Source: Takakia lepidozioides
Taxonomy: Eukaryota > Plantae > Bryophyta
NCBI GenBank assembly: GCA_030704615.1
Contig: CM060733.1
Location: forward strand, 18,290,001-18,354,000
Reading direction: 5' to 3'
Length of the DNA: 64,000 nucleotides
Positions within the stretch are counted from its first letter, which is position 1. The number at the start of each line of letters is the position of its first letter. Shown here in pieces: positions 25,251 to 57,707 of the stretch. The position numbers were made by a program, and so were the translations under genes. A model generated the notes under the pieces. That model had not been told where the DNA came from. It did no database searches and was given only the letters and a program-made list of their open reading frames with translations.

Positions 25251-27188
25251 GTTGTATTCATTGGTTTCCAGTTGCTCAACTCAATTCTGATTTCGGCGTC
25301 CTTTGTTTTACATTGCAATTTAGTGCGCAATCCTGCCAGCAGTTCATTACTGTGAAAGAGAGAAGTGACGGTCATGACACCTGGAATTGCAAAAACCTAA
25401 CGTAGGACGCCAGGAGGAGGAATGAATGGAGACAGTGGGGGCCTTAATGGGCTATGACAGAGGCAGTGACTAATGGAGAACGTGAAGCTGCTTTTAATGC
25501 ATCTCCTTTATGACAACAGAGGTACTGACGCCAAAGCCCCTTCGCTTGAACAACCGTGTATGTTTTAGCATCTGGGCACCATGCTAAACTTACATAAATA
25601 CGCGAGGAACCCTGCCAGGAGCGGCTTGAGAGAATTCCATCAGAGAAATCTTACACGTTATAAGCTTATGAGAGAGATCGGGAAACCATATTTGTAACAT
25701 CCAGTGAAAGCAAATATAGGTAGTCATGAGATTTGAGAGAAGCAACTTCTCTTACAGGTAGAGTAAGTATTCGGGCAGTATCGCAGTGAAACCAGGTACT
25801 GAGTTGTCCTGGCGACATCTTTCAGCATCCAGGCACCGGCGGATGGAGGGACCTGTGAAGTAGCTGCACTTTTTACTGCTTCAATTTAGGGCTGCGCCTT
25901 TTGGATCACTCCTCATCCTTCCAGCAGAGCACAATGGCGAGGCCAGTGCAGCAGAGACGAAGATGGTCAAAGCAAAAATGAAAGCCAACCTGCCTCCCGA
26001 TGTCCTTTTTCTGTGCTGAGGATGGGCTTCATGAGCAGCAGGCATGTGGAAGCAGGCACCGGGTGCCCTGACAACCCAGAAACCCCTGTGCAGAAATTAT
26101 TCCTCCCGACGAGTATGCATCCGTGTTGTCTGAAAGAAATGCAGAAATGGAAGGAGGATCACAACATCACAACATCATAAACTGTCAAAATAAAATCCAT
26201 ATCCACCTTCTTGCACCCCTCATGCAAATGCCATCTTCCAATTCTCATGAGACCTCTCAAATTCAGATGCGTACAGACTGCCCAGACTGGAGTAAGGACA
26301 GAGGATTGAGAGAGAGAAGGGAGACAGACTTGTTCTTTAGTTGGAGACTAACACTGGCTGTTAGACAAGAGAGAGTCCCTAGAAAAAAATGCACAGATGT
26401 CTCTGTTAACTTCTCAAATTAATTCACTCAGTGAAGAGACAAATGGTGAAGACAGAACATTCACTAGAGACTGCAGGGAAGATAGCATGGGTGTGAAAAT
26501 ACAAATAACTTCATGGAAGAACAGCAGCACCGTGACTGTCCTCCTTGGTATGGCTTGTCCTTCTTGGCCCCTCCAATGTATCCATCATTCCTATAAAATA
26601 CATTCAGTGTATACAAGCTACAGAGTTCTAACAAGGTCTCTCAACCTAACATCTCAACTGCCAGGTATCAGAACCTCCAATCAACTTACTTTCTGGTCAG
26701 TGCTCCTACCCTCTAGCAATCAAGCAGCTGGAATTGAAATGTGACTACGTCTTTCACCCTGAGATCTTCCATTGGAACTGAGAGGTTCTACATTAAGATG
26801 CAACGGCCGTCCTGCCCTCTCCGAAAAGATCCAACTTGTTGTTTCTGCTACTTTGTGGCGCTCTGCTCCCTTTCTCCTCCCGAGTCCCAAACTTTTTAAA
26901 AAACCAGTTATTCAGAGGGTGGATGTGGTCTGTGATGCTGTTCCATTTGAGCTTTGTGCAGACTACCACCTGGACCATCCTCTAGGTTTAAACACCAATG
27001 CGCCTGGAGTACACTATCCATAATTTGCACTTTCCTGAAAAAGGCCTTCAGTGCTGTTTCCCCACTCCCTCCTCTCCTCTCCACAGAGGGTGTATATTTC
27101 TCCATCACTTGAGCTGTTAACATAGGGGGAAATAAAAAGTTCAATGGAAGCCAAATGAACTGTGCAAAAGCATGCTTCTGGCAGACCA

Positions 27189-34573: not shown

Positions 34574-35770
34574 CTACTTAGACAACGGTTGTTTATACAC
34601 ATAGATGTAGGAGACAATGCGGTCGAGCACCCATGTGGGAAGCCAGGTCAGAAGTGACATCGACAACGACATGTGGCCACCAGAATATCGGCGGGGGGGT
34701 TGTGTCCTTGTTACTACTTTCACCACCTGATCACAAGCAATGTCACGGCATGAATCAGCAAGTGAGTTTTCGCATCTGCGAAAAAGAACTCACCTCAAAC
34801 AAGGATCTGCTGCAGGGCACCTGAGCAAAGATAGTTCACCATACACCTCTAGATAGATTGACTACATCTGAATACTTATGTGAGCTCACTGAGATGAAGC
34901 AAGAAGAGACGAGTAGTAAAACTAGTTGCGTAGGTTGATAGAAAATCGCTAGATCTAGCATGTCATGGGTTCACCAAGTCCAGGTGCACCAATTAGGACT
35001 GCACTTCTTTCAGCAACTAAGGCTGAAGGTCACATTCTTTAGACTTTCTTTGAGGTCGGAGGGCCATGGATGGATCAAAGAGGTACCTCTTTAGCAAACT
35101 GGGCTGCTGGAGTGGATTTCGGGATTCCCATTGTCCCCGCCATCTTCAACATGGCAGCCTCAAATCCTCGATACAAGGACCATTCCTTCTTTCGTAAGCT
35201 TGCAGCGAAAATTTCACCTATATTCGAATTAATTGAGCCAGGAATGATGGTGATGAGATCTATGTTCAGTGGCTTCAGTTCCAGGCGCAACGTGTCAGAG
35301 AGAGAGAAGATAGATGCCTTTGTTGCACCGTAGGCGCCGACCCATGGCAATGAAAGACGGCCAAGCCCACTAGCTATATTGACAATCTTTCCTCCACCTT
35401 GAGAGACCATGTGGGGAACCACAGCTTGTATCATAGAGAGCCCCCCAAACACATTCACCTCAAAAATGCGACGAACCTGTTCCATTGGTACTTCAGCCAA
35501 TGGGCCCATCAATCCGATCCCAGCATTGTTGACCAAAACATCGATACGGCCTGCTTTCGTGATAACAGATTCAACACCTTCTCTTACGGACTTTTCGGAA
35601 GTTATGTCAATCTGCAGGGTATGAATCCCGTGTGACAGAAGGTCGCTCATGGTTTCCAAAGCTTGCACGTCAGAAGCAAACACCTGGTATCCCCGGGCTG
35701 CAAAGAAACGACTGTACTCATGGCCTATTCCCCCTTTGGCACATCCGGTTACTAGCACAACATTGCTCAT
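34574..35770 (-). CDS. Short-chain dehydrogenase/reductase (AYR1/17beta-HSD-like), 2 exons, 278 aa
   Basis: Exon 35770-35087 has TGCAKGGIG, NNAG and YGATK; GT-AG intron; exon 34726-34574 reads VVKVVTRTQPPRR...LSK*. Confidence 0.92.
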
Positions 35771-36535
35771 TCTCCTCAGTCGCCTATCTGATCCTCAAAC
35801 TTGTTGATGCCAATCCCCTCGTTTTCTTCAATCTAGAGCGGCTCCTTGCGCATTCTCAGATCCTCCCGCTGCAAGTGTGCTCATATGCTTTTGTTGGCTC
35901 TCTTGTAGAGAGAGACTTAGCGGAGACATGCAAGTCAATGGAGAAAATGTGATCAAAGTACCTTACATCGTGTCAAGGCGCTGATTGGTGTGTTGTGCTG
36001 GTAATGCTCCCTAGTCCTCTTATGTTGTGCCAAAGCAAAGCAAGAGAGCCAGTTGCCGTTTGAGGCTTATTGATAATCGATTGTCAGAGCGAGAGAGATG
36101 CAACCGAGCTCAAGTCGAACCTGCAGCACGGTAAAGACATCGGCAGGCGCCAATCTAGTACAATCTAGTACGGCTCAAAAGTGTGGGGCCCCAATTAAAC
36201 CCCAACCCTACAATAATGTCGAATAATTTGTGACGGGACTGCTCAAATTTTTTGTTTTTATTTATTTATTTATTTAGGAAAGGGGACTAAGGCCCTTTTA
36301 ATCAAATTAAATAAAACAAATTTGCATTTGCCCCGCCTGGCTGCAATCAAGAAATACCATGGCAATAAGTCTGATGCCTTACATTTCTTAAAGACTACTT
36401 ACAAAAAGTTTGGTTGACCTAGTGGTCTATGAAAAGCTTGCCAAGAACCAGTCTCTATGATTGGTTTACAACAACAGGAGAACTGAAAGCTAATTACATT
36501 CAATGTGCAGTAGAATTGGGTACATCAGTTCAGAA

Positions 36536-36883
36536 TGTCAAGTTAAATAAGCACAGTGTGAAAACAGCTAGAATAAAACTAGTTATTTGTATTTAACACT
36601 TGGATTTAGGTCAAGTGTTAAATCAGGTGTCAAGTTTAGTTTGACACCTGGTCCGTCTTATCTTCACGAGAGCGGCCGTCGCGCGGCTCATCTCTCTCGA
36701 GTTGAGCCTGCGCGACCGAGCTCCTGCATCGTTTAGGATTGAGTGTGCTCATGATGGGAGTGTAGGTTGTTGTGGGGTGGAGTCCCCACAGCTTGGGGTG
36801 CCCCTGGCTCGACTACTATTTCTAAGAGTGATGGTTTGGTTTTCATGTTTTGTGTCAACAGTGTGTTCGTTGGTTTCTTATCA
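36536..36883 (+). repeat. Split repeat A1 (348 bp, TG...CA)
   Basis: One mismatch seen against A2 (47836-48183). Confidence 0.95.
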
Positions 36884-37840
36884 CTCGAGAGAGATGATCT
36901 CTTACCTGTGAGTGCAAGGTAGGAGTCGAGGGTTAGCACTTGCAAGATTACCTGTGTGTAAGTAGTACTTAGTTTGAGAAGCATATCATTGAATGTGATC
37001 ACAAGATTCAGCGTGCCCTGAAACGCCTGGAGGATGACGATGCCGGAGCCGCCACTGTTATTGTAGTCGCTAAAGCTACCAAGTCACCAGAGGCTTTGGA
37101 GTACACGAGGAGAGACTTAAAAATGCAGCAGCAAATGCTAGTTGGCACCTATGCGTGATCCTTCTGGATGATTGTTTCCCCAGTAAGCTTATAGAGAAGC
37201 TCTACCGTGCAGCATGAGCAGCGCTGGCAAGCTGTGAACGCTGATACCTGCACTCTTGCAGTCTTGGAGTCCAAGCTAGGACACGGGGAATACGACCGGT
37301 CAACAACCAAGGTGCTGCATTTGATCAACAATCCTGAAGCGGAGGGAGCCCAGGCCACGGACTAGCTCGTCTCGTCTTACCCTGGGAGTGCAAAGGATGA
37401 ATAGGTGAAGATCCTTTGGCAGATCAGAGCAGGGCGGAGCTCGTTGCGTTGACTGGCTAGCCGTTATATGGTCGACAGTCGTTTAAGCTGCAGGGTTACG
37501 TTGCCGGGTGATCGATATTGTTTCCAGGTTTTCATTTGGTGGGCATGCCGGGAGCGTGGAGGTGTGAGGAGTGGCAGGGCTTTCATCAGTTGCATCTTTC
37601 TTAGCTGCTGTGTGTTTCACTAGTTGAACATCTTCGAAGCTGAATTACGGCTCAATTGGAAACCCGTACCCTGCTACTTCTGCCTATCGAGGTTATGGTG
37701 GGGGTGGATCAGGAGGGCAGGTGTTCCAGCTCCAGTTGTGTGCATATGTAACCTACCTCCCCGTAATCTCTTTTAGTTCTCCTCTAGAAGAGGTTACTTA
37801 CTTGGACTGACAGGACCTGGATCAGTCTGGAAGAAAGTTT

Positions 37841-38131
37841 GACCTGCGAATAACGTCCGTCCTTGTGATCCTTCTTCCTGTTCAAGAACCAGTCAGGTAT
37901 CTTGAACTGCCGGGGATTCGCGACAATCACCATCAAGTTCTTCAGCTCCGCACCCGACAGCTCACCAGCTCTCTTGCTGGTGTCGACGTCCGCTCTTGCA
38001 GACCAGGTTAGCAAAACGGCGCCCCAATCCCTTGATGGAGGTCAAAGCGAACATGATCTTCTGCCGTCCATCTACATTTGTGTTGAGCACTCGCAAAATG
38101 TGCTGAAATCTTCGTTGGCGATGAGCGACAT
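37841..38131 (-). pseudogene. RPS18: Processed 40S ribosomal protein S18 (uS13) fragment captured antisense
   Basis: [59 protein letters not shown]...[22 protein letters not shown]; no introns, two frameshifts, 3' truncated. Confidence 0.93.
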
Positions 38132-38873
38132 GGTGGATCCCCGCGCAGCAGCGATCCTCGCGCTGTGTAGCTTCACAGGCAAGCGGCAAAGAGGCAAGGA
38201 GGCAGTAGAGTCAGCTGTTGGTGAGGCGAGATAGAAGCACTTTGGGTCTTCAATCCTGAGTACCTCTTTCAGAATATTAAATCCCAACGGACATCAATAC
38301 ATGTGGGAAAGACCTCATACCGCATGTATAAGCATCCCCAGCCATTGGAATGGCGTTGTGCGGCATAGTGAGGAGACGATGCAGGGCATCCATGGCAGCG
38401 AGCACGCAAGAAGAAGCAAGTAGCACTGAAGACACATGATCACAGTGAGGATCAGAAGGACCTAACAGCCCCAGTACTTGAGCGTTGTTCGACACCAGCT
38501 TGATTTTGCATAGACCTGGAGGGGAACGGCCTCGGGAACCCGTAGGTAACCTGGGAACAATTTTTAATGGCGAGAACGTTTTGGTGTTAAAAAACAAAAA
38601 AAACAAAAAAAATGGCTCTTTTTAATCTAATTTAAATGATTTAGAGCCTAATTGGTCATAACTTTGTCAAATGGACTCTGTTTGACTCTGTTTTTGGGGG
38701 GATAGCTGCAGGAAGGAGAAATCTACCTTATCTAAACCTGGTTTCTGTTTTGGGGACTCTGCTAAAAATCTATGGAATTTTTAGAGTGTGAGTGTGCCAC
38801 GAAATATCCACAATCCTGTTTCTAGAACCTGTGCTGGTCTATATGAGAGACAACCTGTGGATGTACTCCTTGT

Positions 38874-39440
38874 ATGGCTGGGGGAAATGAGGACGTAATT
38901 GAAGGGCAGGTCTCTTCTCTTAGCCTGTGCACACAAGGGGACAGGATTTATGTTTCCCAAGGAACTCAGACTGATTTGAGTGGAGAACAGTTGGACGAGT
39001 TGATTGCATACTGGGAGTCAGACATTAGCAGTAGACAACAGACTGCTGTAGTTGGCATTGAGGGCCTCAATATCGCCTTGGACAGTCAGAACTCTGTTGG
39101 AGCCAGCAGTTCTGCAGCTGTAGGTGAAATACCAAAGTGGGTGAAAGCTAGGCTTGGAACACAGCCAAAGACAGCTCCGGGGACCAAGGTGTTCAGCCAC
39201 AAGGCCGTGGTGTACTGGAGCAGAGGAGCAGGAGCTACACAAGTTTGTGCAATCAGACATGGTTGCAGCCGGATACGCTCTGCACAGGGCAACCACGAGC
39301 GGGGGTTCATCAGCAATGACATGTTTGTTGTGCGTGAAGGAGATGCAGTCATTCGCAATGAGGACACCCGCAACCGTCTCAAAGCTTTCGAGTTGAGAGA
39401 CTATCAGACCCTACCTTTTGTTTTCTTTAGTGTTCAGTGA
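38874..39440 (+). CDS. Orphan ORF upstream of gag (188 aa, unknown function)
   Basis: ATG-initiated and protein-like; the frame stays open about 57 codons past the TGA, to about 39614. Confidence 0.4.
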   Translation: MAGGNEDVIEGQVSSLSLCTQGDRIYVSQGTQTDLSGEQLDELIAYWESDISSRQQTAVVGIEGLNIALDSQNSVGASSSAAVGEIPKWVKARLGTQPKTAPGTKVFSHKAVVYWSRGAGATQVCAIRHGCSRIRSAQGNHERGFISNDMFVVREGDAVIRNEDTRNRLKAFELRDYQTLPFVFFSVQ

Positions 39441-40149
39441 GCGGGAGATAGGGGAGTATTGCTTTGTCTCTACCTAGCAGAAAGAGGAGAGGGTTGGTTA
39501 GAGCGAGCTACTGTAGCTTGGGACAAGGGTAGTGGCAGGTTTCTGGACATAGATATACCTCCTACACCTTACCATCATGCAGAGCGAGGCACTTTGAGAA
39601 AGTCTAGCAGTTGATAGCATAGATCAGGATTAGATCTTGCTTGGTTGGGCTTCTATTCTTCCCCTCCTCTCTGTACTATTTTCATTACCTTGTACTTGTA
39701 GTTGCCAAGCCTCTCTTGGTGGAGGCCAGTCAGTCCGGGGTTTTGGGCTGGGATATTTTGCAGGTCAGCATTGCAGCTGGATTTTTGGTGTGGGGGTGTT
39801 GATGTTTTGATTTTTTGTGTTTGGATCCCCCCCAACACCTGCATGCTTGACTGTGTGCCATGTTGGTTTTGTGTGGGCGCTTGTTTTCATAGGGATTAGG
39901 CCGGATTTGATCACCGGTCAATCCTAGAGTGTGCTGTCGGTGGTGAGGCTAGTGGATGACCAGCAAGACCACCAGTGTTTTTCTTCTATGGTGAGGCTGG
40001 GTTGATGACCAGCCAACCATAGGAGTTCTTGCGGTGGATGCAGGTGCAGGTGCCCTGAGCCTTGGGATATGACCCTTAAACTGCAACAGGTGCCCACCCG
40101 TGTACTATTAATTAGTACTAGAGCCTTATAGTGTCACGTGGAGAGGTGC

Positions 40150-41572
40150 GCATTGTGGTGTCATTACGGAGTTACCCAAGGGTTTTGAGGGGAGTACAGC
40201 TACAGGCAGTAACAGTGAGAGTGGGTTCACAAGACGAGGTATTCAGTTCAGACCACCTTCACCGCCACCCTCAATTACTGTAGAGTCAGACACAGACTCG
40301 GAGGCTTCATCAATAGGTGTGCACTTTCATTCGCCATTGTTGTGGGACGACATGGATGGAGATGTATGGAGCTACCAAGGGGCCTCGTAGGTACTCTGGA
40401 GCTGTGGGCACAATTGAGTTGGATGACTTTATCCAGGAGTTCGACAGCTGGTGTGATTTGCAGCAGATGCGCAATCCACAGCTATTCACCCATTCATGGC
40501 GTGGAAGGACTGTTCCAGCATTTGGAAGGCCCGCCTATGGACGATTACCACGAGTTCAGGCGAGGACATGAAGCAGAGATTGAGGAGTGGAGGATGTATT
40601 GGTCATCTGACTACGTCTCTATTACTCGAGGCACGACGCGACCAGTAGCTGCATCAGTACCAATAGCTCCCACTGCCAGCACTAGTAGTGGAGCAAGTAG
40701 TGCTGGTACTTCTGCAGGTGGTACCAGTTCAAAAGGTGCTACTACTCCCTCCTGCCACGACTACAATACATGTGCCTAGATTCAACCCGGTGGTGGAGTT
40801 CTTCCAGGAGTTGCGGAGGAACTACCAAGGTGTACGGACAGAGAAGCTGCGAAGTTTGCAAGACTTCCAGCGCAAACCCAGTGAGAGCTTGCGAGAGGCT
40901 ACACTCGTATGAGGCGCTTGATAAGTGTGACCCAAGGGGTTTACTGAAGCTCAGGCAATCCAGTTTCTGGTATGGAATTTGGACAAGGAGCTCAGGAGAA
41001 GGGTGCGGGATGCAACCCTATTACAAGCAGCCCAACCCACATTAGCAGATGTGTTTCTGCTGGCTGAGCGATTGAGCTCAACATGGTGGAGAGCGAGTTG
41101 TTACAATTGGATTGGCAGGACATGCCTGCACGGGGCACAGCTGTCAGCCCACAGGCACAAGGGACTGCCCAACAGCGTGGTCAGGGGGGCAAGGTTGCCC
41201 AGCCCAAGTTCCATGGAGCTTACAGGGGACCTTAGTGCAGAGGCCCGTGGCATCTTTTGCAGGCCAACAGCAACCAGGGGTGATATGTTGGACATGTGGA
41301 GGACCCCATGTCAGAGAGATTGCCCAGAGAGTGGCAAAAGGCCGGCACAAGCACAGCCTGCACAGTTGCAAGTGGGCATTGTGGCAAGTATGGGCATAGG
41401 CGATGCCCAGTGTTTGACTTGCATCCTGAGTTGCGCCCAGGCCAGTTCCAAGGGAACAATGGTGGCCGGGGCGAGGTGGACCAGCCCAAAGAGGACGAGG
41501 TGGTCGAGCACGAGGTGCAGGCCAAGGGCAAGCTCCACATGGCCAAGGACGCGGAGGTCAGGGTGTTGACCA
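40150..41572 (+). pseudogene. gag of the DNMT element (frameshifted)
   Basis: YGATKGPRRYSG...LDDFIQEFDSWCD, CWTCGGPH knuckle, second Cys/His cluster and RGG-rich tail; homologous to 61593-62993. Confidence 0.85.
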
Positions 41573-42284
41573 AGGCATGGCCAATCGGCTTCAGCAGCTA
41601 GAGCAAAGGCTCGCTGCCATGGCTATAGCTCAGGCGGTACCGGCTCCCAGGCGGGATGGTCACCTCCTGCTCCTGAGGGGAGATTATGGGAGGCATGGAT
41701 TCATGTGCGGAGCAGCACTACCACTAGAGCAGGTGGAGTCTGCTGCAGCCGTGACTCGAGCAGCAGCACGAGTTCCTGAGCCACGAAGTGCAGAGGTGGA
41801 GTTGGATCCACAACGTGGGGGGCAAGCCGTCAGGCAAGGCTGCCTCATCGTTCACCTTGGCGGAGACAGTGTCAACGCCATCCATGGCACCTAGTTCTCG
41901 CCCGACTGTTACCGCGGCGGACATTACTATGCCATTGGGGAGAGCTACACGTGCAGCACTGACACCTTCCACCAAGGCTAGTGCAAGCCGGTGTGTTGTT
42001 GGGGGCAGCCACCTCTGTGTGTCAAGCCCCACTGTTATCGGTAACCATGATTTGCGACGCCGGGAGTGAGACCAGTTGCAGTGTTCAGACTAGCAAGCAA
42101 CACCTGTGAGAGTGGGAGGTCACTCCATCTCTGCAGAGTTAGTGGAAGTGTAGTGGCAGAGGGATCCTCGGATTTGAGGGTCAAGACTGCCACGGCAGCG
42201 CCTGGCAAGCTGCAACTGCCAGATTGACGGAGCCTGCCAGCTAGGCCGCCTTTGAGTGCGCCACGGTGACACCTGGAGTTTGTC

Positions 42285-42720
42285 TTGTTAGACAACCAGG
42301 GAGGCATTTTCACTTTGAGTGGAACCGGCAGGCAAGAAGTACCGTCACTGCGGGTCTTGTTGGACGCGGGAGCCCAACCACTGATGTTGGGCAAAGCTGC
42401 TATTGCAGGTTTGGGCCTCATGGAGGCGGATATGGAGCCTTGTCCTTTCCAGATACAGACAGTCTCTGGGAGGATCAGAGCAGCGTGGGGCATGACACAT
42501 CATAGTGGCTATTCGACTGCAAGCCGGATCCATCCTGTATATGCTCAGTGATGCGAGCCAAGGCCATTGTGATAGAATGCGGTCCTCCTTACGATGTACC
42601 CTCGTTGGTGGGGCAGTGTTCTACCCCATGGTCTTTCACCCTGACTTATGGAGGGTTCTAGCATCTACGTCCTGGAGGAGTCAGCATCCTACAGGCCTGG
42701 ATGGCAGTCAGGGGATGGTC
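42285..42720 (+). pseudogene. Aspartic protease domain
   Basis: RVLLDAGAQPLMLG; the sister copy reads VLLDSGAQPLMLG near 63875. Confidence 0.8.
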
Positions 42721-43110
42721 GCCGTGCACAGCTCCCTGTGACATTCATTGGGGGTATTGCAGCTGCCCAGCGGGGCAAGAAAACACTACTAGCGCCTTCA
42801 CAGCTGCAGTTAGTTGGCCTGGAGAGTTGCTGGAAGGCAATGCCCATGCAGAGGATGTGCCACCTCCAGCAGAGCAGGATGACATGCATGGTACGGCGGA
42901 GTTGCCTGCCATGGTTGCTCACACTCCATTGTGGGGTACGAGCAAGGATTTGCAGCAAGCTGCTGATGGACGGGTGCAACAAGCTGGGTAGAAGCTTTTG
43001 TACCGTCAGGAGAGGAGGAGAGTGCGGGGTGATTGCACCAGGGAAACCTCAGTTGTCACCATTGGACACCACACCTCTTGTGTGGCAGCGGCCGGATGAA
43101 GGCATTATGC

Positions 43111-44060
43111 CTTCTGGACTTGTTTGGCGGGATCAGCACTGGATTGGCTGCAGTGCTGCAGGCAGGTGTACGAGTTCGACGTTACCTGTATGTGGAGAGG
43201 GATGAGACTGCACGACGCGTCTCACTGCGCCATGTTGCTCAGATGGTACAGCAGTACTGAGTGTTGCCGTTGCCTGTCTGCAGTTCGTGGATACCAGCAG
43301 GCCTTGCCAGCAGACATTGCGTTGCTGGGGGCGCAGGATTTGGAGCGGGTTGGCTCCATTGATCTGGTAGTGGCAGGTTGGCCCTGCCAAGGGCATTCAT
43401 CAGCCGGGCATGGCAATGGATTGCGAGACTCGAGGACGGGTCTGTTTTGGGAGATGGTGCGGATTTTGCGCCACTTGCAGCTTCATCAAGCTGTATCTCC
43501 AGCATACATCTTGGAGAATGTGCCACTGATGGGTGATTCTCGGGCCAGGGTGATGGCCAGTGTGCATCAAGTCCGGTCGTGGCTTGGGTCAGCAGTGTTG
43601 CTGGATGCAGCTGCAGTGGGGTCACGGGCTCATCGTCCACGACTATGGTGGACTAACTTGATGCCACCCGCACTGCTCAAGCGTGCATTTGATGGGGTGC
43701 AGCGGCCAGCACACCTCACCGTGGATGGCATTTTGGACACAGGAAGGCAGTCTCAACGTGTGAGACACGATGACCGTTCGCCTTTGGCAGTGGTCAACAG
43801 GGTGGGTCAACCACGAGCAGCATTACCTACACTGCTCAGCTTCCCAGGATCCCATGCTTTTCGGGATGGTGGACCTGGCCTCCTGTGGGATGCTCAGTTG
43901 CAGCAGTTAGTGGAGCCTAATGCCGACGAGCGAGAGCGGGCTATGGGGTTTTCCACTGGGACCACGGCGGTGCCTTCTCTTTCTGAGGCATCACGTCGTC
44001 AGGTGTTGGGGCAAGCAATGGATCTCAATTGCTTGACCTGGATTATCAGCTTGGCTATGG
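43111..44060 (+). pseudogene. DNA (cytosine-5)-methyltransferase domain, DNMT3-like, inside pol
   Basis: Motif I LLDLFGGISTG, II YLYVERDE, IV DLVVAGWPCQG, VI YILENV, VIII AHRPRLWWTN, IX ERERAMGF, X RRQVLGQAMD; one break near 43260. Confidence 0.93.
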
Positions 44061-44489
44061 CTGAGCAACGTAGAGTGCGGAGTGCACTTCCCTTGACGGT
44101 CTCTCTGCCTACCGAGACGGTACAGGCAGCGAGTGGGGGCGAGCCGGTGAGGACCACGGGTGTAGACATCCATGGCACACGTGGGAGGTGCTCGAGGTTC
44201 AGAGGGAGTTGGCAGCCAAGGCAGCTGTGATGGATGAGGTTGGGGATTCTTCTCGGGATGAGGAGGTTCTCAATGATGAGATGATGGGGCAGGATGAGGC
44301 CTTGTCATTGACTGAGCAGGAAGGGGGTACTGCTCAAGAGGTTGCAGCATAGCAACCACGGGACGCGTCCTCTACCTCTAAGCCCACTGGACTTAAGGTT
44401 GCAGTTACGGAGGACAATTGGGAGCCTGACATTGGACCCATTGTCACCGGAGGAGAGAGACGACGTATACGGCGGTTCCTGAGGGCTTA

Positions 44490-45850
44490 CAGGAATTGCT
44501 TTGCCTTCAGTTTGAAGGACTTGGGAGCACTGAAGGGTCAAGAGATCCGTATTGAGTTGGCCACTGACACGCCAATCTTTCGGAGACCCTATAGATACAG
44601 TGACATGGAGAGGTCTTTGATTCAGATGAGGACTCAAGATCTCTGGGAGGCAGGTTTTGGGAGCTCTCTGGTGGAGAGTATGCTTCAGCCACAGTGATGC
44701 CAGCTAAGAAGGATGTCTATGGCAATTGGAGAGAGACGTATGTGCGGTGATTACCGGCCTGTAAATCGTCAGACCAAGTCCGATAGGTATGCCATGCCAA
44801 CACCAGAGGAGATCTTTGATGCCATTGGGCATTCCAAGGTCTTTAGCACGTTGGATTTACGATCCGGATATCACCAGTTGCCGATCAAGGAGGCGGATAA
44901 GCAAAAGACGGCATTCTGGGGGATCAATGAGCACGGGAAGGATTGCCTATACCAGTGGCGGTTCTTACCATTTGGGCTTAAAAACGCTCCCGCTGAGTTT
45001 CAAAGAGTCATGGACAGGATTCTAGCAGGGGTGGAGTTTGCTCGGTGCTACATAGATGACATCATCATCTTTAGTGCTACGGTGGAGGAGCATGAGAGAC
45101 ACCTTCAGGGGGTATTTGAGCGCTTGAGGACGCACGGATTGAAGTTACATCCGGGCAAGTGCAAGTTTTTCCACAACCAGATTGAGTATCTGGGTCACAT
45201 GATATATCCTGGAGGATTGGGGGTACAGCAGACTAATAGGTAGAGTCCATTGCACAGGTTCCACGCCCCACGGATGTGAGCCGAGTTCGAGCTTTCATGG
45301 GGTTAGCAAACTATTACAGACGGTTTGTTAAGGGATTTAGTGCCATTGCAAAGGCTCTAACCAAGCTGACCAAGGTGGACCAGGAGTGGCAGTGGGAAGA
45401 TGAGCAAGAAGAAAGCTTTTCAAGAGCTCAAGGCGAGGTTGACCTCGGCGCCCATCTTGAGACGACCTATCAGGGGGCGTTTTCAGCTGCATACAGATTG
45501 GAGCATGCTGGGGCTTGGAGCGGTGCTCACACAGGTGGATGATGAGGGAAGAGAGTTCGTAGTGGCTTATGCTAGCCGCTCGAACAATGTTGCAGAGTCT
45601 AAGTATAGCTCATATGAGGGAGAATGCTTAGCTGCAGTGTGGGCCGTGGCACACTTCAGGTGCTATCTATACGGCAATCTCTTCACCCTTGTCACGGATC
45701 ACCAACCACTCAAGTGGTTGATGGAGTCAGACAAGCTTACGGGGAAGCTTGCACGGTGGGCACTCATCCTTCAAGAGTATGACTTTCAGGTGGTGCATCG
45801 ACCGGGTTTGGTCAATCGCAATGCAGATGGGTTGAGTCGCAATCCATGCA
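44490..45850 (+). pseudogene. Reverse transcriptase and RNase H
   Basis: [62 protein letters not shown]. Confidence 0.95.
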
Positions 45851-46149
45851 CGAGCCAGCAGGATGACACTGGAGCTCGGTGGCATGGTGAGACGGACGAG
45901 GAGATGGTGCCCGGATGGCATGCATCTGCATTTCTGTGTATCTTGGCAGCGGAAGGCCAGGTTGGACCTGCAACAGGGATGACTGTAGATCAAGTGTCTG
46001 AGGACCCTGAGGCCAGCAATGAGCAAGGTGGCGCCAAAGATATACATGAGGATTCAGTTGTGTTGGACTACCTCCGCACTGGAGACACTGGCAGCCACTG
46101 TGACTGCCAAGGAGAGGGATCGGATCCTACAACGAGCCAAGAGGTTCAA

Positions 46150-47488
46150 GTGGGAGGGGACACACCTGCTCCGAGTGTGGGAGGATGGTCGAGTGAGGAT
46201 TGTGCCTCACCCAACACAGCGGGCACGGTTAGTGCGGCATGCCCATGAGGAGTTGGGGCATTTTGGGGTGCGACGCACTCATAGTCTACTGCAGGCAGGG
46301 GCAGTATTGGTGGCGTGGTATGCACACAGAGGTGCAACAATTTGTGGCTAGGTGCATGGTGTGTGACAGGGTGCGTGCTTCATTCAACGCCCCTACTCCA
46401 CAATTGCACCCTCTTCCGATCATGGGATTGGGCTACAGGTGGAGTCTTGACTTCGCAGGGCCGTTGCCACTGACCATGCGCCACAACAAGTACGTGTTGG
46501 TGATGGTGGAGCACTTCTCCAAGTGGATTGAATTGGTTCCATTGCCTGATAAGGCTAGTGAGGGAGCTGCGTATGCATTCTTGGATTGTGTGCTTAGCCG
46601 ATTCGGTGCTCCAGCTGAGGTACTCACGGACCAAGGGAGAGAGTTCTTGGGGGAGTTTCAGGCTTTGTGTGACAAGGCCTTGATAGACCACCGCACCACT
46701 TCTCGGGATCATCCTGAGGCCGATGGCTTGGCAGAGAGAGTTGTTCAGACAGTAAAGAGGGGTTTGCGCAAGTATGGCTTGCAGAAGGGACACCTAGGAG
46801 ATTGGGACCTTCAGTTACCCTGGTTAGCCATGGGCTACAGGTTCAGCAAGCAAGCATCACTTGCCTCCTTCTCACCATACTTTCTTCTCTTTGGCCGAGA
46901 GCCGGATTTGCCTACATCCATTCGCAGAGAAGCTGCTACAGTTCTTAACCTTGACGATCCGGACGTGTGGGCACGTGCATGTGAGCAGCGTGCAGAGTTG
47001 TTCAAGAGAGTCATGCCCATGGCTTTCGAGAACCTTGCCATTGCACAACACCGTGATACGTTGAGGTATGCTACCATACGTGGTGGGGGCTATCGTCCTG
47101 GGGTTCGGAGATTCAACCCTGGTGACTATGTCTATCTGCAGCAGACTGCCCTACGACCCTGGATGTGACTGCAGGACGTGTTATTTTGAGGGTTCGAGAG
47201 GTCTTGCCCTCAGGCGTCTTGGTCTTGGAGGGTCGGGATGGCATAACTTGGAAGGACCATGTGCGTAATTGTGCGCCATGTCACCTTCCGAATGTCGATG
47301 GCAGGATTGACCCAAACCTGGCAGTGGTATCTGCAGGTTTGAGGTGCATGTTGTGTGGGTCTGCTAAAGGGGCAGCCACCATGCTGGTGTGTGATCGATG
47401 CTCTAGAGGTTGGCATATGGGATGCTTGACTCCACCTCTTGAGATGGTTCCAGATGGGGATTGGTTATGTCCACATTGCATTGGATAG
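46150..47488 (+). pseudogene. DDE integrase with C-terminal PHD finger
   Basis: HEELGHFG...CMVC, SLDFAGP, LTDQGREF, GLAER; ends CMLC...LVCDRCSRGWHMGCLTPPL...GDWLCPHC (C4HC3). Confidence 0.93.
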
Positions 47489-47735
47489 TGGGAGTGGATA
47501 CAACCATGGAAGGCTAACAAGAAACGCAAGGCCCAGCTACTAGGAGACCTTGAACACACGAGATCCTGGCTCAAGTTCACAGATTGCAAGACGGCGACTA
47601 ACGATGGGGCTACTCTTGTACCCGGCCTCTTGGTCTATAGAGTTTGAGTACAATAGGGACAGTGATAGAGGACTTAGTACGGTTGTGGCTATTACATCTT
47701 GTAGCTATCTGGAGGTAGAGGGACCTATCCACCAG

Positions 47736-48269
47736 CTAGGGGGGCGATTGTGGCAGACTACTTTATTGTGCATATATGTGTGGTGTGGTTTGGACAGCGA
47801 TGTAGTTGTGTAGCGATATGTATGCGCACGACAGCTGTCAAGTTAAATAAGCACAGTGTGAAAACAGCTAGAATAAAACTAGTTATTTGTATTTAACACT
47901 TGGATTTAGGTCAAGTGTTAAATCAGGTGTCAAGTTTAGTTTGACACCTGGTCCGTCTTATCTTCACGAGAGCGGCAGTCGCGCGGCTCATCTCTCTCGA
48001 GTTGAGCCTGCGCGACCGAGCTCCTGCATCGTTTAGGATTGAGTGTGCTCATGATGGGAGTGTAGGTTGTTGTGGGGTGGAGTCCCCACAGCTTGGGGTG
48101 CCCCTGGCTCGACTACTATTTCTAAGAGTGATGGTTTGGTTTTCATGTTTTGTGTCAACAGTGTGTTCGTTGGTTTCTTATCATTGTGGCAGACTACTTT
48201 ATTGTGCATATATGTGTGGTGTGGTTTGGACAGCGATGTAGTTGTGTAGCGATATGTATGCGCACGACA
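47736..48269 (+). repeat. PPT plus B1-gc-A2-t-B2 terminal block
   Basis: CTAGGGGGGCGAT then B1 (85 bp), GC, A2 (348 bp), T, B2 (85 bp, identical to B1). Confidence 0.95.
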
Positions 48270-50076
48270 AGAACAAAAAGCAAAATATGTGAGCACTTGA
48301 AGACTACACTGACCTTAGGGACTCTCTTGTTGCCATGCTCCAAAAGATGGGAGCTGTTGGGCAACCACTAGTAATATCCACTGTACAACCTATACTTCGT
48401 GGTATGGTTGAATCAATTGCTCTTGATGTGCTCCGCAACACACGTGGTGGCTTCAAAATCACATGTGAATGGACACGCCAATTTATGAACAATTACATGA
48501 ATTGGACATTTAGAATTGGAACTACCGCTGCTAGCAAACTTCCAATGGATTGGATGGAGCAAGGGCGCTTCGTGGCTTATCGCATTGCCTATCTAGCAAA
48601 AACATACAACAATCCTCTTTCTGTGGTTGTAAATAGCAACCAAACAGGGATTCACTTGATATCTACAGCAAGGGAACGCACATGGGAGAGTAAGGGCACC
48701 AAACACATCCAAGTATTGGGTATAGAACACAAGAGACAAGTTACAATAGTGGTATCTTCAACTGCAGACGAAGTTCTACTTCCTCTTCAAGTGGTTTTTA
48801 TAGTAACTACACAGCGGACATTACCACCAAACAACCGAGGGAGAGCAAAATGCATTGCAGATAGATGGGATCTTACATACAATGAAAACCATTGGTCCAA
48901 TCTACAAACCACACAACAATTTGTGCAGAAAATATGGTGACCTATCTCAAAAGCCAATTCTACAGTTGGGGCTACAAAAGCAAAAAAAAATGGTGTGGTT
49001 AATAGACTGATGGTCAGTTCACAAAAGCAAAGATTTTTAAGATTGGATGAAAGAAAAACATTCAAACATTCTGGTAATTTTTGTACTGGCTAATTGTACA
49101 AGTGCATTGCAACCAGCTGATGTGATTCTACAACATCCGCTGAAACGTGCATTCAAAATGGCATTCAATACTTGGACCACCGGAATGATCAAAGAGCAAA
49201 TTGAAGGTAGAGATCCAAGTGTGGATTTCAGAATGAGTAATCTGAAACCTTACATTTGTGAGTGGCTACATCAAGCATGGACAGAAGTGAAAGCAATGAG
49301 ATCTATGATTGTGAAAGGATGGGAGAAAACAGGACTTACAAGGGCTTAGGAGATTGAGTTTCAACTTGCTGCAATGGAGGCAAATACAACAACTACGATG
49401 TTTACAGCAGTCCCGATATTAAAGAAACCACATAAATCGATGTGGAATCTGATCTGACAGACGAAACTTCAACATTGTCTACAAGAAACACGAGTTACAA
49501 CTTCAGATTCAACCCAACCATCTTCAACCCAACCATCTTCAAGTACAAATGTTGGAAGATCGAAGCTACGAGACTTAGCTAGAAAACGGAAGACATAGAT
49601 AGATTGCATGTATGAAGACAGACAACAAACAACACCACATATGTACTATTGCTGGTGGATTAGACCACCAAGATATTGTATCTTCTTGAAAGCCATCAGA
49701 TATTCCATTTCATTTCCGTTCTGCCTGATGATTACTTGAAGCTGATTCACTACACCGTTTGGGGGGGTTAGCCGGGGCGTCGCTATTCGCTTTGTCGTGC
49801 ACCTAAGCATCGTGCCACAACATACATCGCTGTCCACCATACATTCTAAGCACACAATCCTAGAAAGCTATGCCACAATGATAATGAAAATGAACACAAG
49901 GGAAACACTCCACTCATGAATCCACTCAATCACATAAACTAAGTCAAGCCAAGGGCACCCTTGCTAAGGGAATCCACCCTACAAAGCCCTCAACACACTC
50001 CCTCTCAATACCTAGAGCTATGGAGGTGAGAGAGGCTCATGGAGGCTCAACTACAAGAAGATGAGCCCTCCTCAAC

Positions 50077-53000
50077 TGTCGCGGCCCTTTGCCTTGAGGG
50101 CAGGGGGTCGGGACCCATGAGGGGCTGCCCCTATGGTGGGGGCAGCGGCAGCGATAGGTATGGGGGGCTGAAGCACCCTTGAGTGCCCAAGGCACTCAAG
50201 GAGGCGGAGGCGCTCACTAGGTGGAGCCCCGCACACCGGGTTGCGGTGGGGGTGGCTCCACAAGGGATGGTGGTAGCTTAGCGGGACTTAGTGGGGGTGG
50301 CATAGGACTCACCATGGGGGCGGAGACCTCGTGGTGGGAGTCGTGGGGAGTCTTGGGACTCATCACGGTCCATAGGGGCCGTGGTGAGTGGGCCAAGACT
50401 CACCGCGACTCATCACCGGGAGTCGAGGGTTTTCGTGGTGGTTCGCCATAAAATGGCATGGCTGGTTGTGAAACCCCCGCGGACAGCTACAGAAGTATAT
50501 ACAGGGAGTAGTAACCTCGAGAACGGTGCAAGCCCGTTGGTGACCAAAAACTAGTGAGTAAGCGAGGGAGCCGGAAAGCGACCAAAGAGTGGGGAGCTGT
50601 TCCGGACTGCCAACTACCAAAGGGAATTCCCGCTGGTTCCAAATCGGTGGAGGGTTCTTTGGGAGTTCAAAGGGGGACCGTTATGCCCCGGTGAGCAGCC
50701 GAAGCTCCAAGTTGGTTCGGCGGCCAGGTTGGGAGTTAGGCGCGCGCATCAAGCTAGCAACTATGACCTGAAGGGGAGCTTACCGAAGTGAGGTGCGCGA
50801 CACTTGGTATCAGAGCCTAGAGTTCAGTACGTGATCGTCCTTGGGATTGGCCTCATCATGGGGTCAGGCAAGCCAAAGCGAAAGCGGAACGGCCCAAAAG
50901 ATGATGATCCTGGTGAGCCCGATGGGGGCGACGTGTCAACGAGGCGGCCGTTTGAGGAAGCGATGCATGTCTCCGAAAATGAGGCCGCTCAAGAGCGGGA
51001 GGAATCGGAGGAGTCGGAGCCCAAGGAATCCCTGAGAGCTCCGACCGACCAACAGATGCCTCCCATGCCGGCAGCCTTTTGGGAAGGGTTGTTGGCGCAA
51101 TTTGGCAGGACGTTGAAAGACGTGTTGAAGGCGGCTAATGCCACTTCCACTAAGGCAAAATTTAAGGTGAAGCCTAAGGAACCCGGCACCTTCGAGGGCG
51201 TCCGAAATCGGAAGGCACTCAACACCTGGCTCCTGGAGCTAGAGCAGTACTTCCGGGCGGCCAAGTTGAGTGACGAGGACCGGGTGGAAGTGGCTCCCAC
51301 CTATTTGAGGGGCTATGCTCAACAATGGTGGCAGAAACGCCTTCACGACCGAGGTCCAAGCCCAGAAACCTTGAATTGGAGTGGGTTCAAGGAATTGATG
51401 AAAAGGCAGTTTGTGCCCCTCAACGCGTCCTGGCTTGCCCGGGACAAGATGAGGAATTTGAAGCAAACAGATGACATTCGGGGATATGTCCATGCTTTCA
51501 ATGTGTTGTTGCTCGAAGTCGCGGACATGGCAGAACCAGAAATGGTCTTCAACTTTGTGGCGGGACTGGCCCCATGGGCTAGGCGGAAGTTGGAGGAGAA
51601 GCCACCTAAGACTTTGAACGAGGCAATTGAGAGGGCTGAATGTTTCTTGGATGTCCCTAGGGGTGAAAGACAAGGCCGTACGGAGCTGAACCACAAGAAG
51701 ACCCGGCGGGAAGGTGACGCCTTCCGACCGGAAAAGAAGTGGGATAGGCCACGCGGCGACAATGGCACGTGGAAATCGAAGGGAGGGCCTTCACAAGTCA
51801 AGGCGGCACCCGGTGCTTCAAAAGGAAAAGCGGGTGGAGCGGCCTATGGCGGACAGAAGGCGACCTTTGATGGATTGTGTTTCAATTGCGGGGAGCCCAG
51901 GCAAATGGCCAAGAAGTGCACGAAGCCCCGGCAATTGAACATGACTCGGGCGACCACAGAGCTGTCGGAAGATACCATCAGTCGCTTGGTGGAAGCGGTG
52001 GTCGCCAGGACTTGCAAGGTAGGCAAATTTTCTTGTGAAATGTATCAGGAAACTGGCGCCTTACGTAAAGGGAGTCAGTTATTGTTCGTGGATGGGATAA
52101 TATCCGGAACTAACGTGTCATTGTTGGTGGACACAGGAGCGTCGCACTCCTTCATGACACCGGCAACGGCACAAAAACTGGGACTCCCGACAAGTGACGT
52201 GGGGGCCTCTATTGAGGTGCGTTCTGCCAAAGGAGAACCGCAATTGGCGACGAGGTTGGCGTTCGATGTCCCTCTTCAACTGGGGAAATGGGAAGGACGT
52301 GAGAACTTCACCATTTGCGAGATCGATGGAGTGGATCTCATTTTGGGGATGACCTTTTTGAGCAAATCCGGAGCGGTCATAGATGACCGCAAAAGAGTAG
52401 TCACACTACCATGTGGGGATGGTGGCAAAGTCTTACGAGTATTAGAAACGCCCAAACCCGTGGGAGGACGAATAAACCTTCTGTCAGCAAGGGAGTGGGT
52501 CGTGGAAGAGGCACATGAGCCCCAGTTTTTGCTTTACATTAGAGAAGTGAAGGGAGAAGGCGATGGGGAGCCGAGCCCAGATTGGATCAAGGGGATTTTG
52601 GAGAGATACCAGGATGTGATGCCGGAGGATTTACCAAGCGGCTTGCCACCGCGAAGAGGAGTTGACCACAAGATTGAGGTGATACCGGGATCGGAACCAC
52701 CTGCCAAGGCGCCCTACCGGTTGAGCCACAGAGAGTTGGTCGAGCTGAAGACTCAGCTCAAAGATCTAATGTCAAAGGGGTACATCTGGCCGAGTAAGTC
52801 ACCTTACGGAGCCCCGGTGCTATTCGCAGACAAGAAAGATGGGACGCTGCGGATGTGTGTCGATTACAGGGCTTTGAATAAGGTGACTATCAAAAACCGG
52901 TATCCTTTGTCAAGGATCGACGACCTTTTCGATCGGTTGGCAGGAGCAAAGTATTTCAGCCGGATTGATCTGCGCTCCGGCTATCATCAAATTCGAGTGG

Positions 53001-56000
53001 CGGAAGGAGATGAGGAGAAGACCGCGTGCATGACAAGGTATGGTTCATATGAGTTCTTGGTGATGCCTTTTGGGCTCACCAATGCACCCGCGACATTTAG
53101 CACGCTGATGAACAGCCTTTTCCAGGAGTGGTTGGATGACTTTGTGATCGTGTACATCGACGACATCTTGGTGTATTCAAAAACAAAGGAGGAGCACCTG
53201 AAGCACCTCAAAAGGGTGTTCCAGAAATTGTGGGAAGAGAAGCTGTATGCCAAAGCTTCAAAGTGCGAATTCGGGGTCACAAAAGTGGAGTTCCTGGGGC
53301 ATGTGATTACACAGGATGGGATCAAAATGGATGACAGAAAGGTGAGGGCGATCTTGGACTGGGAGCCTCCGACTTCGGTCCCGGGAGTGCGATCCTTCCT
53401 AGGACTCGCCTCCTATTACCGGAAGTATGTGAGAAATTTCGCCAAGATCGCGGGGCCGTTGTCAGACCTTCTGCGTAAATCCAAAGTTTGGATATGGAAC
53501 ACCTTGTGTGGCCAAGCTTTTGCTGAATTGAAGCAGCGGATGGCGGAAGCTCCAGTCTAAAATCCCGGAGTTCGATCGGCCGTTCGAGATTCATACAGAT
53601 GCGTCGGACTTTGCGATTGGGGGTGTACTGATGCAAGATGGACGTCCAGTGGCTTACGAAAGTAAGAAACTGAACGAAGTGGAGCGACGGTGGCCGACGC
53701 ACGAGAAAGAGATGAAGGCGGTGGTGCACTGTCTTGAGCTTTGGCGCCACTATGTTGGTTCCAACCCAGTGAAGGTGTTCACGGACAATGTTACGGTGAA
53801 GTATTTTGCCACGCAGCCCAAGTTGTCCCCAAAACAACTTAGGTGGCAAGATACTTTGGCGGTGTTTGACGTGGATATCCAATACAAACCGGGACGTGAC
53901 AATGTGGTGGCCGATGTTTTAAGTAGAAAGCAGCAGCTCCTGTTGGTGTACAGGGGCGAGACGGCGTTCCAAAGGAAGATCCGGAAGGCTTGCCAGAAGG
54001 ATGAGCTGGCGAAGTCCGTGATGCAGGACTTGAGGAGGGGGGTTAAATCGCAATTCCACTTGCAAAATGGACTGCTCCGGTACAAGCAAAAGCGTCTCTA
54101 CGTGCCGAAGGGAGGGATCAGAGATAGTCTCTTGAGAGAATGTCATGATAGCGCGCTTGCGGGCCACGGCGGAGCTAAGCGCACTGCGGCACTCTTGAAG
54201 AAAGAGTATTTCTGGCCCAAACTGAGGGAGGAGGCAGAGGAGTATGTCAAGACATGCACCACATGCCAACAAAACCGGAGCGAGTACAAAAAGCAAGCGG
54301 GGCTGTTACAACCCTTGCCGATTCCAGAGGGGACTTGGGAAAGCGTCTCGATGGATTTCATGACTGTTATGCCGCTGTCAAAAGGATTCGATGCAATCAT
54401 GGTGGTGGTGGATAGGTTCAGTAAAATGGGCCATTTCATCCCCACCAAGGAGACGGCAACGGCGCAAGAGACAGGGCAACTTTACTTCGCCCACGTCTTA
54501 AAACATCATGGAGTCCCGAAGGATATTGTCTCGGACCGCGATCCAAAGTTTACGAGTAAATTTTGGAGGACACTTTGGAAGAAGATGGGGACGAGGTTGA
54601 AGATGAGCACCGCCTTCCGACCTACGACCGACGGCCAAACGGAAAGAGTGAATTCCGTAGTGAAGCAGATCTTGCGGAATTACGTGTCGGCAGACCAATC
54701 AGACTGGGTGGAACACTTAGACGCGGTAGAGTTCTGTTATAATAACACAGAACACTCCACAACGGGAGTTTCCCCTTTCGTATTGGTCTATGGAAAAGCA
54801 CCTCTGGTGCCAACAAGTTGGGCCGCCCAGGACGTTGAGGAACCGGCAGTAGCGGCGGTACTGGAAGAACGCGAGCGTTTGTTGAAGCTCGCAAAATACA
54901 ACATTGCCAAAGCGAGGAAACGGTATGAAAGGCAGGCGAATCGGAAGCGGAGGGAAGTTAAGTTTGAGACAGGCACGGAGGTCTCGTTGAACATCAAGAA
55001 TTTCCGACTACCTCCGGAAGTGAGTCCAAAATTTGTACCTCCGTATGCGGGACCCTTTCGCATCCGGAAGGTTATGAATGAGGATGTGTATGAATTGGAG
55101 CTGCCGGCAAACAGCAAGGTGCATCCAGTATTTCACGTCTCCCTTTTGAAGCCTTACTTCAAAGATGAAGCGCGTCCGAATCGGCATCAAGTGTTGCGTC
55201 CGCCACCTGTGTTGTTGGATCATGAAAATGAACCTGAGTACGAGGTGGAGGCAGTACTTAAGTCGAGGAGGTTCAAGAACCAAGAAACGGAGTATCTCGT
55301 CAAATGGAAAGGCTATCATCATGTGGAGGCATCTTGGGTGCGTGCCTCAGAAATGGGAAACGCATCCGAGGCGGTTGCAGTTTTCGAAGGGCGACCTCAA
55401 AAGCGGAAGAAGCGTTGATGGGGACATCAACCTTGGAGCGTGGGGGAGGAAATGCATGCTTAGCCCGGCTTAGCTAGCTCAGGAATCCGATTGCAAAAAC
55501 TTGTATTGTACAAAAAATTGTTATAAAGGAAATGGGTTCCAAATGTTGTGTGTCCTATTTTGTTTGGAATGGTGATGCATGGTGTGGTTGGCTAGTGTGT
55601 AGAATGCATGCTAGCTTACAAAAGTGGGAGAGGTAAATTGGGTTAGTCGTGTGTTTGCGCAGTGCCGAAATCGGGTGACTCCCATCCAAAGGGCAAGGAA
55701 ACATGCGCCTTCTTTGGGTGCTAGTGCGCACCTGGCGCGTGCGCGTACTATAACTGCGCTACCGAGGTGGTTGCCTTGTAGTGCGGGCTAACGCGGAAGC
55801 TATGTGCTTCCGTTCACGTACTATAATCGTGTAGCCTCGGGACGAAGTCGTAGTGCGACTTCGACGTGTTCCCGTACCTCAGGCCAACATTCCAAGACGG
55901 ACCCAATTGTAGTGATTGGGGCGCACGGTTGGTTCAAGGTTATCTTCCTAGTCAAAGGGGGTTCGAGGTGAACCCTTGCGCAAAGTGATGCCAAAAGCGG

Positions 56001-57042: not shown

Positions 57043-57707
57043 ATGATAATAATGAACACAAGGGAAACACTCCACTCATGAATCCACTCAATCACATAAA
57101 CTAAGTCAAGCCAAGGGCACCCTTGCTAAGGGAATCCACCCTACAAAGCCCTCAACACACTCCCTCTCAATACCTAGAGCTATGGAGGTGAGAGAGGCTC
57201 ATGGAGGCTCAACTACAAGAAGATGAGCCCTCTTCAACACTCACAAGGGGAAAACCCATCCCCATGTCCCAAATGAGGTTTGACATCTCACTTGGCATAT
57301 GAGACCAATCCTAGTTAACTAGAAGTAGTTAATTCTAGTTAACCATGACTAAAACCATGACAGCTGTCGTGCACCTAAGCATCGTGCCACAACATACATC
57401 GTTGTCCACCATACATTCTAAGCACACAATCCTAGAAAGCTATGCCACAATCGCCCCCCTAGCTGGTGATTAGGACCCTCTAACACCGGATAGCTGACAA
57501 GTATCCATCTCAATAAGATCATCGCTTGGTCTTCAATTGCACATGTCCCAAATTTTTTAAGTATATGGATCAAGAGCCCAGGTGCAACGAGAGCCCCATC
57601 GTTAATCGCCTATTTGCAATCCATGATCTTCAATTGAGTATCCATGGCATTGAGCTCCTACCAACTAGACCTTGGATCGCTTGGCAACTCCACCATTGTC
57701 ATGCCCA

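Follow-up and report, generated by a model that had tools for sequence, protein, structure and literature searches.

Self-priming of reverse transcription is known from the Tf1/sushi chromoviruses and from some copia lineages. In Tf1, the RNA's first 11 bases have been described to pair with the primer-binding site (PBS), with RNase H cutting between bases 11 and 12 (PMC7175516), and priming has been placed within a three-duplex "pretzel" (PMC10085805). Among plant elements, self-priming has been predicted for Tcn1 and TAR (PMC6317226), the account of SM-Tcn1 gives evidence for neither priming mode (PMC2864245), and Tj1 has been proposed as another self-priming case (PMC4600332). A different organisation is found in DIRS-type elements, which use a tyrosine recombinase and among which no primer is known for DIRS-1 (PMC7192593); the PAT-like, Ngaro and SymbioDIRS elements are arranged as A1-internal-B1-A2-B2 and thus carry an internal copy of the end-to-end junction (PMC7192593, PMC5890265). 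A further case is KnitGypsy-Dnmt3 of Klebsormidium nitens, for which DIRS-type repeats, Gypsy domains and a Dnmt3-like methyltransferase are given in the legend of Fig. 4c of PMC5890265, the A-coding-B-A-B layout being spelled out in the legend of Fig. 1e. The main text of PMC5890265 contains no mention of priming, PBS or circular intermediates, and a streptophyte Gypsy-DNMT3 is mentioned in passing in a preprint (bioRxiv 10.64898/2026.05.21.726589).

In this study, an element of this kind was analysed in a 64,000-nt stretch of the Takakia lepidozioides genome (hereafter the window), together with two further copies in the window and six related contigs from elsewhere (L025 to L030). Copy 1 occupies 36536-48269 in the order A1, internal region, purine tract, B1, GC, A2 and B2, with AGAA on both sides, and its parts are as follows.

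36532-36535, plus strand: left target-site duplication (TSD) AGAA; the same 4 nt follow B2 at 48270-48273
36536-36882, plus strand: repeat A1, starting with TGTC and ending with TTATC (TTATCA if 36883 is counted), with 1 mismatch to A2 over 347 nt
43100-44230, plus strand: C5 cytosine methyltransferase domain, Dnmt3-like (PF00145, E 2e-13)
44698-46248, plus strand: reverse transcriptase (RT) and RNase H in separate reading frames (PF00078, PF17917)
46233-47488, plus strand: DDE (rve) integrase with H2C2 finger, followed by a PHD finger (PF00665, PF17921, PF00628)
47738-47746, plus strand: polypurine tract directly 5' of B1, an arrangement common to copy 3, L025 and L026
47747-47833, plus strand: repeat B1, ending with GACA and identical to B2 over 87 nt
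47830-47839, no strand assigned: GACA-GC-TGTC, the palindrome at the B|A junction, which repeats the joined element ends internally and is the predicted integrase cut site
47836-48182, plus strand: repeat A2, holding a second hairpin with its motif at 47985-48008
48183-48269, plus strand: repeat B2, the right end of the element, identical to B1

On the basis of its sequence, the element is a KnitGypsy-Dnmt3-like Gypsy, since Gypsy domains, a Dnmt3-like methyltransferase and A-internal-B-A-B repeats occur together. The Gypsy domain order RT-RNase H-integrase is present, and the best solved-structure matches of the methyltransferase were DNMT3A at an E value of 4e-7, itself a weak match, versus HhaI at 4e-4. 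No match to a Chromo domain was obtained in copies 1 and 3, L025, L028 and L030, where a PHD finger was found instead. The element is like KnitGypsy-Dnmt3 in domain set, methyltransferase and repeat layout, and the K. nitens integrase and PHD protein is 58% identical among the matches listed; however, the nearest named relatives of the window elements among the matches listed (120 of 616 integrase matches) are liverwort proteins, from Calypogeia (C. fissa, 83-85%) and Marchantia (M. polymorpha, 76-89% over partial cover). Methyltransferase-bearing relatives also include Marchantia proteins. A tree of the integrase core, built from 24 rows with L029 left out (99.4% identical to L028) and no Tf1 or Tcn1 reference, united 20 rows in a clade with 100/100 support. 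This clade holds the window copies, L025 to L028, L030 and K. nitens KFL_005000010, which we assume from its domains to be the published KnitGypsy-Dnmt3 element, and it stands apart from the chromodomain element of the window and the three elements most like it. The position of the methyltransferase domain varies within the clade: in L030 (3061-9519) it lies between RNase H and integrase and not before RT, and in L028 (2-6460) there was no methyltransferase match at E 0.001.

The six relatives were obtained among 57 candidates by an integrase profile search of genome contigs; the same search of viral contigs yielded none among 37 candidates. L025 to L030 are eukaryotic retrotransposon contigs that lie in four prokaryote genome bins, where they are probably eukaryotic contaminants. 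L025 is a collapsed circular contig representing one whole element, with an integrase 75% identical to that of copy 1. Pattern searches gave 0 matches of the hairpin described below in viral contigs; its 24 matches in metagenome contigs all appear to be chance, with a downstream complement of at most 7 nt and no similarity to the element. Likewise, none of the 23 loci with the junction pattern in viral contigs resembled the element, and four host genome bins and seven further contigs held only Gypsy elements nearer to the chromodomain element of the window, or chance motifs.

The original prediction had noticed that the sequence after the first A repeat has no tRNA PBS and pairs instead with a segment of the repeat itself. 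The features that bear on this, in copy 1 and in a sister insertion (copy 2), are the following.

36678-36716, plus strand: hairpin around the primer segment, -27.6 kcal/mol, predicted to form in the 3' copy, whose RNA would include the 5' arm
36690-36702, plus strand: candidate self-primer ATCTCTCTCGAGT and predicted 5' end of the RNA; pairing in copy 1 reaches 36688
36883-36897, plus strand: primer-binding site of copy 1, of non-tRNA type, adjoining A1
58993-59308, plus strand: A1 of copy 2, an element that interrupts the integrase gene of copy 3; no B precedes this A1
59145-59157, plus strand: candidate self-primer of copy 2, inside the hairpin 59133-59171
59309-59321, plus strand: primer-binding site of copy 2, the exact complement of 59145-59157

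Both complementarities were confirmed: in copy 1, 36883-36897 (ACTCGAGAGAGATGA) and 36688-36702 are exact reverse complements of each other, as are 59309-59321 and 59145-59157 in copy 2. The stems also agreed with their earlier description, the outer stem of copy 2 being altered yet still pairing. In L025, the 13 nt following its A (7415-7427) are perfectly complementary to ATCTTTGTCAAGT (7239-7251). Anchored at the end of repeat A, the match spans 15, 13 and 13 nt in copy 1, copy 2 and L025, respectively. Perfect anchored matches were thus present in 3/3 elements of the land-plant-type clade with available 5' context, at a composition-based chance of 5.5e-6 to 1.3e-5 per element for an A-end-anchored 13-nt complement. 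When A of copy 1 was compared with every position of the window, five anchors were found, three in the real site and two overlapping, AT-rich chance matches at 26497-26498. The motif GGCTCA-N12-TGAGCC occurs five times in the window against 0.02 expected (100 shuffles), each time within an A repeat or a partial A duplicate. As predicted, TGG, the complement of the tRNA CCA end, is absent from the first 8 nt past A in all three elements, and ARAGORN and Rfam scans of the 64-kb window gave no match. By contrast, the neighbouring, unrelated chromodomain element in the window shows LTR-CT-TGGTATCAGAGC, a site of the initiator-Met type. As in Tf1/sushi elements and Tcn1, the site described here adjoins the LTR end and is complementary to a stretch within that same LTR.

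Conservation of the pairing extends to sequences that have otherwise diverged. No A-repeat match between the window and L025 or L026 was found by blastn, and a core of CATCT..T..AGT..AGC was alignable across five A repeats. On the aligned primer and site, three primer columns varied and all three were compensated, across three 5' contexts. The compensation score was equalled by 17 of 500 shuffles, a weak statistic in which only three sequences carry covariation and two 3'-context rows add stray cells. Shifting the partner by 1-3 columns lowered pairing to 28-53% of cells; cross-family duplexes reached -6.5 to -9.8 kcal/mol versus -16.3 to -21.0 kcal/mol for own duplexes, and only 10-11 of 13 pairs formed when L025 was crossed with window copies. 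Farther out, L027 (integrase 54% identical) is without the ATCT...AGT motif and has a 12-nt complement of other sequence, of uncertain anchoring and reached by 7 of 200 shuffles. L028 and L029 lack an A repeat altogether, and the sequence of L030 breaks off at the junction. In run X5, four contigs fit the window as far as 36897, the last base of the site, and diverge beyond it. A site variant, G36891A, makes up about 19% of depth in X1 and X3, with depth differing about 20- to 30-fold, and the partner change is absent among the rows listed. Two CpG positions in the 5' arm of the hairpin, 36682 and 36685, also vary in run contigs, G36685A reaching about 40-60% of depth with partner changes absent among the rows listed; this variation suggests that a major subfamily exists or that the stem has undergone methylation decay.

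In folding with ViennaRNA, which models nested structures only, each of the five A repeats was predicted to form a hairpin over the primer, with two registers among them. Its arms flank the primer in the window copies, where 12 nt separate them in each of three subfamilies, and in L025 and L026 8/13 primer bases are predicted to be paired within the stem and 4 to lie in the loop. In these models the primer pairs with the site mainly in RNA that lacks the hairpin 5' arm. Where the RNA starts at the A of C|ATCT or no more than 5 nt upstream of it, modelled primer:site pairing was 0.66-0.97; for starts 12 nt or more upstream it was at most 0.003 in copy 2 and L025. The values of copy 1 were mixed (0.67-0.95 at -15, -20 and -30, 0.06-0.15 at -12/-10 and 0.06-0.24 at -60/-40), and since copy 1 still pairs from some upstream starts, the start-site argument leans mostly on copy 2 and L025. 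A TATA stands at -29 in L025 and L026 and TTATCTT at -32 and -29 in copies 1 and 2, respectively; no TATA-like element was seen in copy 3. Plant transcripts tend to start by the YR rule, which C|A fits. The central primer:site duplex was predicted in 3/3 elements, the flanking duplexes of a pretzel only inconsistently, and the helix closes a large multi-branch domain in the predicted fold. Just 3' of the site, a local hairpin is predicted at 36896-36928 and at 59322-59353 from differing but pairing sequences, and the corresponding stretch of L025 is unpaired.

Taken with the folding models, these data make Tf1-type self-priming from the 5' end of the RNA likely, as originally suggested: the match adjoins the repeat end, and it is the best reading because a perfect 13-nt match is kept in the distant L025 with all three variable positions compensated. 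The A of C|ATCT, or a base up to about 6 nt upstream of it, would be the start of transcription, and the hairpin 5' arm would remain untranscribed at that end. Nucleotides 1-13 of the RNA would then pair with the site, and RT/RNase H would cut after ...AGU, much as Tf1 is cut after nt 11. Minus-strand synthesis would start from the last base of A and jump to A2, where the 5' arm is putatively transcribed, and only there, so that the complete hairpin may stop the second primer copy from competing. Plus-strand synthesis from the purine tract would yield a linear B-A-internal-B-A cDNA, and copying of the retained primer would hold primer and site matched automatically. The proposal is like that for the Tf1/sushi chromoviruses, including plant Tcn1, in its short self-complementary primer and its non-tRNA site right after the 5' repeat. 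It differs in having 13 nt instead of 11, a PHD finger in place of a chromodomain, split repeats, a hairpin that overlaps the primer and no clearly predicted three-duplex pretzel.

The RNA might instead start upstream of the hairpin, with a Gag-chaperoned switch that opens the stem, lets the internal segment pair with the site and has it excised as primer; the energies of hairpin and duplex are of similar size (-27.6 vs -25.5 in copy 1, -17.1 vs -16.3 in L025), copy 1 forms the long-range helix even with the 5' arm, and a hairpin covers the primer in 5/5 A repeats. However, the hairpin of copy 2 is favoured by 7 kcal/mol, pairing in copy 2 and L025 falls to about 0 once the arm is included, and in both of these the 5' limit of the pairing is the same A, about 30 nt past the TATA-like word, which leaves the switch unlikely. 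The original prediction had offered, besides self-priming, a pseudoknot-like arrangement in which a 12-nt hairpin loop presents the primer. The 12 nt stood as a spacing between the stem arms, constant in three window subfamilies whose segment does lie mostly between the arms, but not as a loop: window loops are predicted to be partly paired (CUC/GAG closing a 4-nt loop), and the loop position is not kept in L025 and L026, where the stem holds 8/13 primer bases and only 4 are in the loop. Given these two registers, loop presentation is not a family feature. Topology also speaks against it, as an A-form helix has about 11 bp per turn, the 13-15 bp duplex is longer than one such turn, and a closed 12-nt loop cannot be threaded by it unless the stem opens. 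Pseudoknots lie outside the folding model, and the case against the loop is therefore an argument from L025 and topology, by which a kissing loop or pseudoknot appears very improbable. Dimerisation through the CTCGAG palindrome, another suggestion made at that time, found no support either, the central six bases reading CTCTCG, TTCTCG, TCTTGT and TTGTCA across four subfamilies; it is unlikely because the palindrome is missing from two of the four.

A primer could also come from elsewhere than the RNA 5' end. The same segment is present in A2, and an RNA that ends or is cut after ...AGU there would prime from its 3' end with no need of 5' cleavage; but in L025 and L026 the 5' arm would still keep the final 7-8 primer bases of that end paired, and scant homology would seem to be left for the first strand transfer, so we give this route hardly any credence. 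Half-tRNA priming has been described in plant copia lineages (PMC6317226), and a tRNA fragment or small RNA acting in trans might likewise prime here, the complementarity then serving to close a 5' UTR or packaging domain, in keeping with the large multi-branch domain that the helix closes, or a DIRS-like reconstruction of ends at the DNA level. We regard this as quite improbable: no TGG follows A, the pairing ends at the A end in 3/3 elements, and the central six bases change between subfamilies together with the matching segment of the element itself, a pattern that a host tRNA would not track.

Since the site adjoins A1 and the purine tract adjoins B1, the ordinary LTR of this element corresponds to B+A, and reverse transcription should yield B-A-internal-B-A. 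The base before TTG is included in B, being A in the window and C in L026 (one informative copy), and by the L026 base C is probably the last base of repeat A, the site then beginning with the A of ACT. The integrated form looks like a circular permutation of B-A-internal-B-A, cut at the left B|A palindrome. We lean towards a route in which the cDNA is closed end to end and the left GACA-GC-TGTC is opened by the DDE integrase with a 2-nt stagger after CA; such a cut would give processed ends at once, and with them A-internal-B-A-B, TGTC...GACA termini and a 4-bp duplication. GACA-GC-TGTC is kept in 5/5 complete junctions (copy 1, copy 3, L025, L026 and L027, with integrases down to 54% identity), L030 ends at GACAGCTG, within the junction, and the A2|B2 joins are precise in 3/3 cases. 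No tyrosine recombinase was found in the ORFs scanned, including the three plus-strand ORFs of the complete contig L025. All four informative elements (copies 1-3 and L026) fit a left cut giving A-internal-B-A-B and none a right cut, an outcome with a 1 in 16 chance if both sides were equal, and this left bias is not explained by the cut model. The right ends at 48270, 49792 and L026 2885 are all followed by A (AGAA, AAGC and AGTC), possibly a target preference.

Precedents exist for the enzymology that this route would involve. IS3-type elements integrate through end-to-end circle junctions. HIV-1 integrase cleaves the palindromic 2-LTR junction in vitro (PMC1905944), and a second report (PMC1180852) likewise deals with integrase cleavage of 2-LTR circle junctions. 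In these systems, as here, a palindromic end-to-end junction is the substrate of a DDE enzyme; unlike in 2-LTR-circle cleavage, the LTR of the present element itself contains the palindrome, with a spacer of 2 nt, and cleavage would be the obligatory route and not a side activity. Compared with PAT-like, Ngaro and SymbioDIRS elements, the repeat order and the internal junction are shared, but the present element has a DDE integrase, a 4-bp TSD, conventional PBS and polypurine tract positions and, in the ORFs scanned, no tyrosine recombinase.

Copy 3 lies on the minus strand and was delimited in two blocks.

57045-57451, minus strand: copy 3 B1 (57451-57365), GC and A2 (57362-57045), with a primer-type segment at 57224-57212
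49793-50076, minus strand: duplicated 3' part of copy 3 A2, then B2 (49879-49793)

The chromodomain Gypsy at 50077-57042 lies 2 nt inside B2 of copy 3. In place of a 5-bp TSD, some 200 nt are duplicated on its two sides (49880-50076 and 57043-57238); recombination between two insertions or template switching could account for this. At least three nested or truncated chromodomain Gypsy copies, 94-97% identical to 50077-57042, occupy 1-12660 of the window. A short-chain dehydrogenase ORF (35075-35794, minus strand) lies upstream of copy 1, and a broken ORF (48293-49600, plus strand) between copies 1 and 3 gave no Pfam match and looks by eye like a DNA-transposon remnant. In copy 1 itself (36536-48269) the repeats are near-identical, yet the coding region is broken over many frames, and the copy may have inserted recently and belong to a defective lineage that is mobilised in trans, or may contain sequence errors. 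Its leader carries a coding fragment of ribosomal protein S18/S13 (37844-37978, minus strand, PF00416), and the leaders of copies 1 and 2 gave no alignment. A stem-loop upstream of gag (39890-39935 in copy 1, 8491-8536 in L025) keeps 29/30 nt in otherwise unalignable leaders; its outer stem differs but still pairs, a diverged version is found in copy 2 at about 61300-61350, and an acceptor-like word, TTTTCATAG, stands just before it in copy 1. This stem-loop is a candidate packaging or splicing signal.

Both the family and the priming mechanism are already known, each on its own; the literature searched, with most subscription journals and Repbase outside its scope, gave no instance of the two combined, of the masking hairpin or of the permutation model, and no paper listed deals in its title or the opening of its abstract with priming or integration in this family. 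The DIRS-like repeats of KnitGypsy-Dnmt3 had been drawn earlier, without explanation in the searchable text. Our results supply a candidate primer for the KnitGypsy-Dnmt3-like family, which sets the start and the end of reverse transcription, and restate the A-B-A-B layout in a testable form, as a normal two-LTR cDNA permuted by a cut inside the left LTR. We tentatively put forward, as a possibility that we would not yet call probable, that in a methyltransferase- and PHD-bearing Gypsy lineage reaching from algae to liverworts self-priming evolved outside the chromoviruses, a hairpin formed only in the 3' copy silences the spare primer, and integration proceeds by an obligatory circle-and-cut at a built-in palindrome, the cDNA ends being ignored. 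If true, this would be a eukaryotic retroelement with a DDE integrase acting on an internal junction, it would give a hint to the priming of split-repeat elements in general, and the circle-and-cut route would explain DIRS-like split repeats without a tyrosine recombinase.
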